Of a stretch of DNA of 12,324 nt, positions 1 to 12,324 are shown one piece after another. A model generated the notes under the pieces. It saw nothing but the letters and a program-made list of their open reading frames with translations. It did not search any database and was not told where the DNA came from. The first letter of the stretch is position 1. Each line of letters starts with the position of its first letter. A program made the translations under genes and the position numbers. Source of the stretch: Candidatus Hydrogenedentota bacterium (GTDB lineage Bacteria > Hydrogenedentota > Hydrogenedentia > Hydrogenedentales > SLHB01); contig BTVY01000086.1 in the NCBI GenBank assembly GCA_045863335.1, positions 1 to 12,324 on the forward strand, given 5' to 3'.

Positions 1-69
1 CGATACCGATACCGATACCGATAGCGATACCGATAGCGATACCGATCCCGATACCGATACCGATACCGA
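1..69. repeat. Tandem hexamer array (CGATAC)n, 11 full units with CGATAG x2 and CGATCC x1 variants; truncated by the window start
   Basis: Read directly: cgatac x3, cgatag, cgatac, cgatag, cgatac, cgatcc, cgatac x3, cga. Confidence 0.97.
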
Positions 70-7993: not shown

Positions 7994-9226
7994 ATGAACA
8001 AACTGACCATAGAAGACTTGGACGTCAAGGGGAAGCGCGTCCTCATGCGGGTAGACTTTAACGTCCCGCAGAACGAAGACGGCAGCGTCCGCGACGATAC
8101 GCGTATCCGCGCCGCGTTGCAGAGCATCAACTACGTGCGCGAGAAGGGCGGAAAACTCATCCTCATGTCGCACCTGGGCCGCCCCGGCGACCCGAACAAG
8201 GCCGAGTCCGAAGAGGAGAAGGCCAAGATTCTGAAGAAGAACGCGACGCTCAAGATGGACCCCATTGCGGACCACTTGCGCAAGCTCGTCGGCGGTAACG
8301 TGAAGAAGGTGGACGACATCGTCGGACCGGACGTGGAAGCCGCTGTGGCCGCCATGGAACCGGGCGACATCATCCTGCTTGAGAACACGCGGTTCAACAA
8401 AGGCGAGACGAAGAACAATCCCGAGTTGTGTGAGCAGCTCGCCAAGCTGGGCGACGTGTACGTGAGTGACGCGTTCGGCACGGTACACCGCGCGCACGCC
8501 TCGACAGAGGGCGTCACCAAGTACGTGAGCCAGAGCGCAGCCGGATTTCTGGTTGCCAAGGAAATGGAATACTTCGGCCGGGTGTTAAACAGTCCAGATC
8601 GACCCCTCCTGGCCATCCTCGGCGGCGCGAAAGTCTCGGACAAGATTACGGTTATCGAGAATCTACTGAACCTGGTCGACACGCTGGTGATCGGCGGCGG
8701 CATGGCCTACACCTTCATGAAGGCCCAGGGCTACGAGATCGGAAATTCCCTCCTCGACGAAGGCGGCATCGACGTTGCCAAGACTGTCCTGGCCAAGGCC
8801 AAGGAAAAGGGCGTCGAACTGCTGCTTCCCGTCGACACCGTTGTTGCCGATGAGTTCTCGAACGACGCCAACACGAAGGTGGTCAGCCTCGGCGAGATCG
8901 AAGCGGGTTGGGAAGGGCTGGATATCGGCCCGAAGACGCTGGAGATGTTCTGCGACGCCATCAAGAAATCGAAGACTGTCGTGTGGAACGGCCCGGTTGG
9001 GGTGTTCGAGATGGCGAAATTCGCAGTGGGCACCAAGACCATCGCCGACCTGCTCGCGAATTCCCTGGACATCACGAGCGTGATTGGCGGCGGCGATACG
9101 GCGGCCGCCGTGGCCCAGTACGGGCTCGCGGACAAGATGTCGCACGTATCGACCGGAGGCGGCGCTTCCCTTGAAATGCTCGAAGGGAAGGAACTGCCGG
9201 GATTGGCGGCGTTGACGGACAAGTAG
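7994..9226 (+). CDS. pgk: Phosphoglycerate kinase, 410 aa (true start ATG 7994, not 7874)
   Basis: [85 protein letters not shown] at 7982-7985. Confidence 0.99.
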
Positions 9227-9231
9227 GAAGA

Positions 9232-9454
9232 AAATCCGAAATACGAATCACGAAATCCGAAACAATTTGAGATCTCAGATTTGAGATTTCAGAAGTGAAG
9301 AAAACAGAAATTGAGACAGGGTGGAAACCAGGGATTTGGCGGGATCTACTCGATCGCTCTTGAGTGGTTGGAGATGGGCCGAACGAGATCGTCTTCGTTT
9401 TGAGTTTTGGTCATTCGTGCTTGTTTCGGATTTCGAATTTCGGGTTTCGGATTT
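9232..9454. repeat. 223-bp inverted-repeat element with heptamer-built arms (34-bp arms, 29/34 complementary) plus an internal second heptamer array
   Basis: Left arm aaatccg aaatacg aatcacg aaatccg aaacaa (9232-9265). Right arm ttgtttcggatttcgaatttcgggtttcggattt (9421-9454). Internal tttgaga tctcaga tttgaga tttcaga (9266-9293). T6 at 9457-9462. Confidence 0.88.
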
Positions 9455-9570
9455 GGTTTTTTGGCGTTGCCTCGGTTGGCGGCGCGTTTAATACAGTACC
9501 TGGCTCTCGGGCGTGCAACTCACCGATGCCGATCTGGGACCGGGTGAATACGAAAGGAAACGGTGCAACT

Positions 9571-9843
9571 ATGTCGACGATTACGAAAGAACGCAAGCAA
9601 GCCATCATCAAGGAACACGGGTCGCACGAAGGCGATACCGGTTCCGCGGAAGTCCAGATCGCGCTTCTGACGGAGCGTATCAACGATTTGACCGAGCATT
9701 TCAAGGCCCATCCGAAGGATTTCGGCGGCCGTCGCGGGCTGCTCAAGCTCGTGGGACGGCGCCGCCACCTTCTGAACTACGTGCGCAGCCTCGATATCGA
9801 GCGCTACCGCGCCATCGTCAAGACGCTTGGTCTGAGGAAGTAA
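9571..9843 (+). CDS. rpsO: 30S ribosomal protein S15, 90 aa (true start ATG 9571)
   Basis: [24 protein letters not shown]...[15 protein letters not shown]...LGLRK. RBS aaagga at 9553-9558. Canonical rpsO-pnp synteny. Confidence 0.99.
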
Positions 9844-9880
9844 GTATCAACGAAAGAAAAACATACATTGTAATGTTGCC

Positions 9881-9904
9881 TGGAACGTTGTGGGAGACGT
9901 TCCA
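9881..9904 (+). promoter_or_regulatory. Hairpin in the rpsO-pnp intergenic region (pnp leader)
   Basis: tggaacgt-tgtgggag-acgttcca, an 8-bp perfect stem with no U tract, just upstream of the pnp RBS (ggag). Confidence 0.5.
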
Positions 9905-9928
9905 TCAAAAACGGAGAAAGAAAGAACA

Positions 9929-12220
9929 ATGGTAGAACGTCTCTCAATCCCTATCGGTACGGAGGAGATCATCCTCGAAACCGGTAAGATCGCCAAGCAG
10001 GCCCATGGCTCGGTCATGGTCACCTGCGGCGAAACGATGGTGCTTTCCGCGGTCTGCGTAGCCCCGGAAGCCCGGGAAGGACAGGATTTCTTCCCGCTCA
10101 CGGTCGACTATCGCGAGAAGAGCTTTGCCGCAGGGAAGATCCCCGGCAACTTCTTCCGGCGCGAAGGCCGCCCGACGGAGCGCGAAGTGTTGGTGTGCCG
10201 TCTCACAGACCGGCCCCTGCGCCCCCTGTTCCCCAAAGGGTTCCTCAACGAACTCCAGGTTTTCTCGACGGTCTTTTCGACCGACAACGAAAACAATCCC
10301 GACATCCTCTCGCTCATCGGCGCATCCGCGTCGCTGCATCTCTCGAAGATTCCGTTCCTCGGGCCCATCGGCGCGGTGCGCGTTGGACTGATCGAGGGTG
10401 AACTGGTCGTCAACCCCAAGATGTCCGACATGGTGGAAAGTGAACTCGATCTGGTTATCGCGGGCACAAACGAAGCCATCACGATGGTGGAAGGCGCGGC
10501 GAACCAGGTCCCTGAGGAGAAGATGCTCGAAGCCCTCGAGTTTGGGCACAAGTACATCAAGCAGATCTGCGAAGCCATCGAGACCTTCCGCCAGCGCGTG
10601 GGCGTCGAAAAGATGGAATACACCGAACCGGCCAAGGATGAAGCCGTAACCAGCGACGTGGAGGGTATCGCCCTCGAACGGTTCAAGGCTCTGCTTGCTC
10701 CCATGGACAAACAGGATCGGGCGGATGGAATCAAGGAACTCAAGAAAGAGGTCCACGAAACGCTTGCGGCTCGCTACGGCGAAGAATCGTATGCGGAGAA
10801 GAGCGGCGAGATTAGCGCCGCGCTGGGCGCGCTCGAAAAGCGGCTCATGCGCGACCAGGTCATCACGACCAATACCCGGCTTGACGGCCGCGACCTGACC
10901 ACGGTCCGCCCCATCTCCATCGAGGTGGGCGTGTTGCCGCGCGTGCACGGATCCTGCCTGTTCACCCGCGGTGAAACACAGGCCCTTGTGACGACGACCC
11001 TCGGCACCAGCCGCGACGAGCAACGCCTTGACGAACTGACCGGGGAAGAGTTCAAGCGCTTCATGCTGCACTACAACTTCCCGAGCTGGTCGGTCGGCGA
11101 AGTGCGCCGGATATCCGGTCCGGGACGCCGCGAAGTCGGGCACGGCAAGCTCGCGGAACGCGCGCTGGAAGGGATCGTGCCCAACGAGGACGATCCGGAA
11201 GCCACCGCGTTTCCGTACACGATCCGTATCGTGTCGGACATCACGGAGAGCAACGGGTCCAGTTCCATGGCTTCGGTGTGCGGCGGCACGCTCAGCCTGA
11301 TGGACGCCGGCGTGCCGGTGAAAGCGCCTGTGGCGGGTATCGCCATGGGACTTATTAAGGAAGGCGACGAAGCCCGCGTGTTGAGCGACATCCTGGGCGC
11401 TGAAGATCACCTTGGCGACATGGACTTCAAGGTCTGCGGCACGAGCGAAGGCATCACGGCCTTCCAGATGGATTGCAAGGTCATGGGCGTTTCGCGCGAA
11501 CTGATGAGCCAGGCGCTCCATCAGGCGCGGGAAGGCCGCTTGCACATCCTCGAGAAGATGCGTGAATGCCTGGCCGAATCGCGCAGCGAGATTTCGCGCT
11601 TTGCGCCGCGCATCATCACGATCAACATCAACGTCGACAAGATTCGCGACGTCATCGGACCGGGCGGAAAGGTCATCCGCGAGATCCAGAAGAACTCGGG
11701 CGCCGAGATCGAGATCGAAGACGACGGTACCGTCAATGTCGCGGCCGTGGACGCCGAAGCGGCGCAGGCGGCTGTCGACATGATTCGCATGATCGTCGCC
11801 GAGCCGGAAGTCGGCCAGGTGTACCAGGGCAAGGTCACGCGGATCATGCCCTTTGGCGCCTTCGTGGCGGTCATGGGCGGTAAGGAAGGCCTTGTCCACA
11901 TCTCGGAACTGGCCATCGGCCATGTTCGTGAAGTCACCGACGTGGTGAATGTCGGCGACGACGTTCACGTGAAGGTTACCGAGATCGACAAGCTCGGCCG
12001 CGTCAACCTTTCCAAGGTCGAAGCGGACCGCGAACTCGGTCTGATATCCGACGAAGACTACGCGGCCCATGAGGCCGCACCGAAGGGTCGCGATCGTGAT
12101 CGGGGCGACCGCGGCGGCGACCGCGGCGGCCGTGGTGGCCGCGGCGGGGACCGGGGTGGCGACCGGCGCGGTGGCGGCGGTGGTGGTGGCCGAGGCGGCC
12201 GCGACCGTTCACGCCGCTAA
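9929..12220 (+). CDS. pnp: Polyribonucleotide nucleotidyltransferase (PNPase), 763 aa (ATG 9929)
   Basis: ETGKIAKQA.G, DFFPLTVDY.E, RLTDRPLRPLFP, FTRGETQ, HYNFP, RREVGHG, SNGSSSMASVC, DH.GDMDFKV, KH domain (IGPGGK), S1 domain and an RGG/RD-rich tail. Confidence 0.99.
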   Translation: MVERLSIPIGTEEIILETGKIAKQAHGSVMVTCGETMVLSAVCVAPEAREGQDFFPLTVDYREKSFAAGKIPGNFFRREGRPTEREVLVCRLTDRPLRPLFPKGFLNELQVFSTVFSTDNENNPDILSLIGASASLHLSKIPFLGPIGAVRVGLIEGELVVNPKMSDMVESELDLVIAGTNEAITMVEGAANQVPEEKMLEALEFGHKYIKQICEAIETFRQRVGVEKMEYTEPAKDEAVTSDVEGIALERFKALLAPMDKQDRADGIKELKKEVHETLAARYGEESYAEKSGEISAALGALEKRLMRDQVITTNTRLDGRDLTTVRPISIEVGVLPRVHGSCLFTRGETQALVTTTLGTSRDEQRLDELTGEEFKRFMLHYNFPSWSVGEVRRISGPGRREVGHGKLAERALEGIVPNEDDPEATAFPYTIRIVSDITESNGSSSMASVCGGTLSLMDAGVPVKAPVAGIAMGLIKEGDEARVLSDILGAEDHLGDMDFKVCGTSEGITAFQMDCKVMGVSRELMSQALHQAREGRLHILEKMRECLAESRSEISRFAPRIITININVDKIRDVIGPGGKVIREIQKNSGAEIEIEDDGTVNVAAVDAEAAQAAVDMIRMIVAEPEVGQVYQGKVTRIMPFGAFVAVMGGKEGLVHISELAIGHVREVTDVVNVGDDVHVKVTEIDKLGRVNLSKVEADRELGLISDEDYAAHEAAPKGRDRDRGDRGGDRGGRGGRGGDRGGDRRGGGGGGGRGGRDRSRR

Positions 12221-12236
12221 GACATAGTCTCACACG

Positions 12237-12274
12237 CACTGGCGCTTCCCGCGGGAAGCGCCAGTGGTTTATTT
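12237..12274 (+). terminator. Rho-independent terminator of pnp
   Basis: Perfect 30-bp palindrome cactggcgcttcccg|cgggaagcgccagtg (12237-12266) followed by gtttattt, beginning 16 nt after the pnp stop. Confidence 0.9.
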
Positions 12275-12324
12275 GTGCGCCCGGCAGGGCGCGTTCACTT
12301 GAGGGTGCAAGTCCCTTACAGGCC
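12275..12324 (+). mobile_element. 5' end of a class C (IIC) group II intron, truncated by the window end
   Basis: Begins with the GUGYG 5' consensus (GTGCG), followed by CCCGGCA.GGGCGC and GGGTGCAAGTCCC. This matches my recollection of IIC 5' ends (O. iheyensis-type GUGUGCCCGGCAUGGGUGC...AGGGUGAGAGUCCC). It sits directly 3' of a terminator hairpin plus T tract, the known IIC target. Confidence 0.82.

Follow-up and report, generated by a model that had tools for sequence, protein, structure and literature searches.

The window, by which we mean the whole 12,324-nt stretch analysed, is the entire contig C86 of a metagenome-assembled genome (G000; 105 contigs, 6.75 Mb), and its right-hand part carries an rpsO-pnp pair on the forward strand. 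Upstream of that pair, a Pfam domain search places pgk, gap, an Mla-like ABC transporter set and ligA. The gene for ribosomal protein S15, rpsO (9364..9843, forward strand; Pfam Ribosomal_S15, 118.1 bits), is listed as an open frame of 159 aa in which only residues 78-158 make up the S15 domain; its true start probably lies further downstream, internal to the listed frame, and a leader of about 230 nt would then precede the gene. The polynucleotide phosphorylase gene pnp (9890..12220, forward strand; Pfam RNase_PH twice, PNPase, KH_1 and S1) is the 5’ exon gene of the element discussed here. Its product has an unusual Arg/Gly/Asp-rich C-terminal tail after the S1 domain (RDRDRGDRGGDRGGRGGRGGDRGGDRRGGGGGGGRGGRDRSRR; window 12086-12217), coded in part by 12- and 21-nt tandem repeats. 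The opposite end of the window (1-69) is a hexamer array of 11.5 copies (consensus CGATAC, 90% matches), and GGTATC/GCTATC arrays of the same kind end contigs C12, C44, C58 and C72. A sequencing-run search found the pnp region in bioreactor and sludge metagenome runs.

Behind pnp, on the same strand, lies the stem-loop CACTGGCGCTTCC-CGCG-GGAAGCGCCAGTG (12237..12266), an intrinsic terminator with a perfect 13-bp stem, 9 of its 13 pairs being G-C, and a 4-nt loop. It is followed by the T-rich tail GTTTATTT (12267..12274) and then by GTGCG at 12275-12279, just as the initial annotation had described. Folding the RNA of 12225-12274 gave -27.9 kcal/mol, compared with -12.7 ± 2.5 kcal/mol in 200 shuffles (z -6.04, none of the 200 reaching the observed value). 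The terminator scan over 9000-12324 as a whole was unenriched, with three sites versus 3.4 ± 1.8 in shuffles; the other two sites have just 5-6 pairs each. From 12275, which is 54 nt past the pnp stop codon, the contig reads GTGCGCCCGGCAGGGCGCG..., includes a GAGGGTGCAAGTCCCT stretch at 12300-12315, and ends at base 12324, the whole of this portion being GTGCGCCCGGCAGGGCGCGTTCACTTGAGGGTGCAAGTCCCTTACAGGCC. A class C (IIC) group II intron almost certainly starts with these 50 nt (12275..12324, forward strand), having inserted in the sense direction 8 nt behind the pnp terminator stem and been truncated by the end of the contig. The final three nucleotides of the T-rich tail (12272-12274, TTT), or possibly four (ATTT), are then IBS1, and the pnp stem-loop occupies the place of IBS2 in IIA and IIB introns. 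No Rfam family matched the window at its gathering score; such a miss is to be expected of a 50-nt piece, as the first of the models covers the intron from position 86 onward.

G000 contains this 50-nt sequence 12 times, in every case at a contig end and with 100% identity over 50 nt (eight copies), 48 nt (two) or 46 nt (two). All 12 copies begin exactly at GTGCG and the DNA that precedes them is different in each, and this recurrence at 12 contig ends, always from GTGCG, makes the arrangement in the window more than chance. A hairpin stands upstream of every copy (mean -23.2 kcal/mol for 50 nt folded, versus -13.3 kcal/mol in control windows taken 120-520 nt further upstream), with 1-9 nt between stem and intron (8 nt at pnp). 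The last three exon bases are TTT at 11 of the 12 sites and ATT at the site in contig C41, whose hairpin is the weakest of the 12 (-13.6 kcal/mol), and ten of the copies lie 30-69 nt past the stop codon of an open frame that runs in the same direction and encodes 80 aa or more. The initial annotation had proposed that other copies of the element would also be found after terminators, and all 12 are.

When all 210 contig ends of G000 were clustered, four groups of 12 emerged. One of them is the 5’ end described above. Another is the intron 3’ end, ...CGTACGGTGGTGTGAGAGGACGGGGGAGGAACTATCCTCCCCCTCCTACTCGAT in intron orientation, followed by unique DNA; each of the 12 members of this group contains domain V’s 3’ strand, the hairpin of domain VI and a terminal ...CTCGAT. 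The first base of the 3’ exon is T in 11 of the 12 copies. Seven 3’ exons begin with TGC and one with TGG, which exceeds the need for a single IBS3 base and may reflect a further target preference or chance. A 13th copy of the 3’ end sits inside contig C19 (C19:71866-71963), where a 53-nt IS end directly abuts 55 nt of the intron 3’ end in mid-contig; both pieces are of about k-mer-overlap length, and the junction was probably created in assembly rather than being real. The remaining two groups of 12 belong to an unrelated IS-like repeat, one group for each of its ends (TGTCAAAACTTGCTGATAATGTCCTCT... and TGTCAAGACTCGTTAGAAATGTCCTCT...), further contig-end repeat families have 9, 7, 7, 6 and 6 members, and the contig breaks of this genome fall mostly at mobile elements. 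We are confident that the assembler broke at every copy of the intron, and the length seen per copy (46-52 nt) would correspond to the k-mer overlap into the repeat.

Two genomes of the same genus, G026 and G024, carry the pnp 3’ region without an insert (...CGCCAGTGGTTTATTT|TGCGGT...), the intron-less allele that the initial annotation had suggested looking for in relatives. This region is 95% identical to G000 in G026, and 97% and 90% identical in two pieces in G024; the pnp hairpin is kept in both, unchanged in G024 and with one stem mismatch in G026. The next 1400 nt of both genomes match contig C35 of G000 (length 77278) from position 77227 downward with 91-92% identity, and what is left at the end of C35 is precisely 51 nt of intron 3’ end (...CCTACTCGAT). 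Since C86 and C35 flank a point across which G026 and G024 run on without a break, they represent the two sides of one insertion: G000 reads ...GTTTATTT|GTGCG...CTCGAT|TGCGGT... across the two contigs, where the other two genomes read ...GTTTATTT|TGCGGT.... Judged from the aligned sequences, the insertion at pnp is precise and lacks a target-site duplication. We see little room for doubt that G000 has no fewer than 12 copies of the intron, each behind a different terminator, and that the other end of the pnp copy is the one on C35.

It could be argued that the 50 nt are a dead 5’ intron fragment, or an artefact that the assembler created at contig ends, as only 46-52 nt are visible per copy and the IS-intron join in C19 shows that odd repeat joins do exist in this assembly. 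However, 12 intron 5’ ends are balanced by 12 3’ ends at contig termini, with the 13th 3’ end in C19, and the pieces on C86 and C35 flank the exact point that is uninterrupted in the two intron-less alleles, so that we consider a fragment or artefact very improbable. A genuine insertion at pnp remains our reading. The 50-mer (with up to three mismatches) was missing from all five congeners searched and was present in 1 of 53 other genomes of the family, G011, which belongs to another genus.

The intron of G011 (L018:2001-3881) is 1881 nt long, lies behind a hairpin and T-run of its own, and is identical to the window in 49 of its first 50 nt. A second full-length relative (L107, on a metagenome contig) is 1885 nt long and 87.1% identical to the G011 copy, with one mismatch to the window in the first 50 nt. 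Both have Rfam matches in D1-D4 and in domain V/VI, with RF02001 at 143.6 bits in G011 and 143.9 in L107 (gathering score 32), RF01998 at 46.9 and 68.2 (gathering score 35) and RF00029 at 47.0 and 46.1 (gathering score 40). The 3’ end of L107, CGTACGGTGGTGTGAGAGGACGGGGGAG...CCTACTCGAT, matches the 3’-end group of G000 except in the distal domain VI hairpin, and since L107 has both ends, the two end groups of G000 belong to one element type. A scan of public metagenome contigs for the 5’ end gave four loci, and L107 is the sole one of them to be both complete and close (L106 stops at a contig end, L105 aligns over 110 nt and L108 is 68% identical); all four have the base of G011, and not that of G000, at position 22. 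The 3’ end of G000 had no exact match in public metagenome contigs.

The lack of an Rfam match at gathering score within the window is also what would be seen if the 50 nt were ordinary conserved intergenic sequence, another non-coding RNA, or a repeat of some other kind such as a REP or an IS end. The GTGCG start of every copy speaks against such an origin, and the idea is refuted by the absence of the sequence from the same site in two congeners and by its continuation into a complete group II intron in both G011 and L107, leaving it with a negligible probability.

Several features of the relatives place the intron in class C. In the RF00029 alignment, domain V of the G011 copy is AACCGCCGUAU... 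where the consensus has gaGAGCCGUAU..., CGC replacing AGC, and four model positions are deleted at its tip. The AGGAA motif is found in UCUGAAGGAAG at L018:2102-2112, within the RF02001 match, and the intron ends in ...CCCGAT. The intron-encoded protein (IEP) of G011 has 431 aa and consists of RVT_1 (64-271) and GIIM (287-365) only, without an endonuclease (En/HNH) domain, and it contains FCRYADDCNIY with the YADD motif. Its best solved relative is the GsI-IIC reverse transcriptase (RT; 501.6 bits, E 1.8e-149), followed by 7uim (364.5 bits) and 5hhj and 5hhl (about 285 bits), with LtrA (142 bits) and 6me0 (138 bits) far behind. We take 7uim, 5hhj and 5hhl to be IIC proteins, LtrA to be a IIA and 6me0 a IIB protein, and this ranking indirectly suggests that the IEP of the G011 copy belongs to the class C clade. 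The reading frame is intact in L107, runs through domain V and ends with RTVV-TGA, as in the 3’ ends of G000. In G000 and L107 this stop codon lies in the linker between domains V and VI; in G011, TGG takes its place at L018:3844-3846, and the frame stays open for 112 further codons, into the next intron. The initial annotation had predicted a class C group II intron behind the pnp terminator, and the CGC triad, the AGGAA motif, the EBS1-IBS1 pairing described below, an IEP that carries no En domain and the closeness of GsI-IIC RT, all read in relatives, bear this out; domain V, an RT/maturase with YADD and a 3’ AY end (...GAT), which it had suggested looking for further downstream, are likewise present in the full-length relatives, G011 and L107.

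Within G000 itself, searches with RF00029 and GIIM gave no match, and when the G011 intron and its IEP served as queries for blastn and tblastn, they recovered the intron ends only. The interior of about 1.8 kb was presumably lost from the bin during binning, as a short high-coverage repeat contig. A different explanation is that the pnp copy, or all 12 copies, are ORF-less or internally deleted IIC derivatives that have kept their ends and core and are either mobilised in trans or immobile. RT or maturase sequence is found nowhere in the G000 bin, a short interior would fall under the size of its smallest contig (1510 nt), and the RTVV-TGA codons overlap domain V and would therefore be retained even without the ORF. 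On the other hand, 12 copies that are identical at both ends suggest that the intron moved recently, for which one copy at the least must have supplied an IEP; the full-length relatives do carry an RT/maturase ORF (intact in L107, complete but without its stop in G011); and a 1.8-kb repeat at 12-fold coverage would be the type of contig that binning drops. We therefore think an ORF-less derivative unlikely, though it deserves more weight than the fragment or artefact discussed above, and treat the pnp copy and the others as an ordinary IIC intron of a known and very common lineage.

A wider set of relatives was used for the exon pairing. The IEP has 604 confirmed relatives in reference genomes, and the best 80 (78 distinct loci) share 55-74% identity with it and come from many phyla. 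The 5’ end and its flank could be placed in 68 of these 78 loci; four lacked a 5’-end match, two had a partial one and four had a short flank. A GTGCG/GTG[CT]G start is seen in 44 of 44 loci that were picked by a regular expression requiring it, and in 22 of 24 further loci placed with a profile. The 46 nt upstream fold with a mean of -20.5 kcal/mol in the 44 loci and -21.4 kcal/mol in the 24, versus about -10 kcal/mol in controls, and the last 8 nt before the intron contain on average 5.3 and 4.6 T’s, respectively. Domain I was aligned for 66 loci and the two introns of G011, giving 68 rows, of which one was gapped and 67 were scored. EBS1 corresponds to the three bases that follow the conserved GGC of a hairpin loop (intron positions 181-183), and these pair at 3/3 with the last three exon nucleotides in 59 of the 67 rows; in 50 of these the pairs are all Watson-Crick. 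When the exons were permuted 2000 times, such rows numbered 13.3 on average and 24 at most, and sliding the columns gave 3-16. The short 3-nt EBS1 covaries with IBS1 in the relatives, as in the EBS1/IBS1 combinations CTA/TAG, GAT/ATC, GGG/CCC, TAC/GTA and CCA/TGG, and the TTT (or ATTT) of the window matches the EBS1 AAA(T) as read in the G011 copy. The eight unpaired rows include the second, tandem intron of G011.

That second intron (L018:3882-5775, starting GTGTGCC...) is a different group II intron that begins at the base after the terminal ...CCCGAT of the first. It matches RF02001 at 122 bits and RF01998 at 52.7, has a domain V of 27.1 bits, below gathering, and carries its own RT/maturase ORF of 487 aa. 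It appears to use the domain VI hairpin of the first intron in the terminator’s place, and no pairing with GAT is seen at its EBS1 position. Comparable arrangements occur among the other relatives: L104 has four intron 5’ ends (at 311, 936, 2824 and 3448), L089 and L088 are likewise tandem or nested, all within about 4 kb, and the ‘hairpin’ that lies upstream in L089 and L104 belongs to another intron, of which it is the 3’ end. A literature search for tandem IIC introns returned no report, and the part of PMC12584367 available to us reports tandems for the IIB1 groEL intron only.

The following sequence of events is established for class C introns, and we propose that the G000 intron would follow it too. 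Rare read-through of the terminator would transcribe the intron, and the RT/maturase would aid its splicing. The resulting RNP would then reverse-splice into DNA at a terminator-like hairpin followed by a 3-nt IBS1 (TTT, matched by the AAA of EBS1) and a single-nucleotide IBS3 (T). As the IEP lacks an endonuclease domain, synthesis of the cDNA would probably be primed at replication forks. By analogy with the class, it is reasonable to suppose that expression of the pnp copy would likewise depend on read-through of the pnp terminator, as the initial annotation had assumed.

A bolder proposal would treat the intron as a ‘burst’ element, acquired not long ago and active at present, which arrived by horizontal transfer, proliferated rapidly and has its pnp copy transcribed whenever the operon is read through. 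Horizontal transfer and proliferation are suggested by the 12 end-identical copies, the lack of any in five congeners and the 49/50 match of the 5’ end in another genus. We hold this as doubtful speculation, with the odds well against it, but if it were true, intron mobility would be tied to the conditions that induce PNPase, through read-through of the strongly regulated rpsO-pnp operon. In E. coli, pnp is induced by cold or stress.

The biological weight of finding one more such intron is low, as descriptions of class C introns behind terminators go back to 2006-2007. Its practical value lies elsewhere. The intron accounts for 24 of the 210 contig ends of G000 and can help in scaffolding, C86 being joined to C35 through one intron, and the case illustrates that such an intron can be recognised in raw sequence from 50 nt and their context. 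In addition, the 67 loci form a natural data set in which a 3-nt EBS1 visibly retargets with its exon.

The features seen here agree with what has been published for class C. The available portion of Toor et al. (2006; PMC1702495) describes IIC introns as having an IBS1-EBS1 pairing of 3-4 bp, a terminator stem-loop instead of EBS2, a short domain V with CGC for AGC, and a conserved AGGAA bulge motif. Insertion after intrinsic terminators is reported in the accessible text of the same paper and of PMC4424553 and PMC7306698. As far as the excerpts of PMC4424553, PMC7306698 and PMC12584367 go, IIC introns recognise DNA hairpins together with short EBS-IBS pairings, are devoid of the En domain and draw on primers at replication forks, lack a promoter of their own and are rarely transcribed behind terminators. 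Class C makes up half of the bacterial group II introns mined in one survey, according to the part of PMC7306698 at hand.

Among known systems, the closest by its protein is the GsI-IIC RT of Geobacillus stearothermophilus (PDB 6ar1; 428 aa). Residues 2-415 of the G011 IEP align end to end with residues 5-417 of its chain, and both proteins are about 430 aa long and comprise RT and maturase/thumb only. In the title of a 2018 paper by Mohr et al., GsI-IIC is reportedly termed ‘highly proliferative’, which resembles the at least 12 copies in G000. The hosts differ, and the element of G011 and G000, known from its sequence, is a relative and not an orthologous copy.

The class C-attC introns (for example S.ma.I2, as cited in the consulted extract of PMC4424553) are of the same class and recognise a folded DNA hairpin plus a short IBS1 in the same way, but they target the attC sites of integrons, whereas the copies in G000 target terminators at gene ends, 10 of the 12 lying after a co-oriented frame. 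The Pfam domain search of the window’s ORFs revealed no integron context.

B.h.I1 of Bacillus halodurans, as portrayed in the available portion of PMC1702495, resembles the G000 copies in its site and architecture. It belongs to a different sequence lineage, its stem is 3-11 nt from the splice site versus 1-9 nt for the G000 copies, and its self-splicing and the role of its stem-loop were tested by experiment, while the same properties in G000 are predictions from DNA sequence. Other features are alike, with the interior of the G000 copies read from their full-length relatives: both have a terminator stem-loop and U-run, a 3-4 bp IBS1-EBS1 pairing that lacks an accompanying IBS2 in B.h.I1 and probably also in G000, a short domain V with the CGC triad, the AGGAA bulge motif and, within domain IV, an ORF of about 1.3 kb, and both are present in several copies per genome at different terminators.
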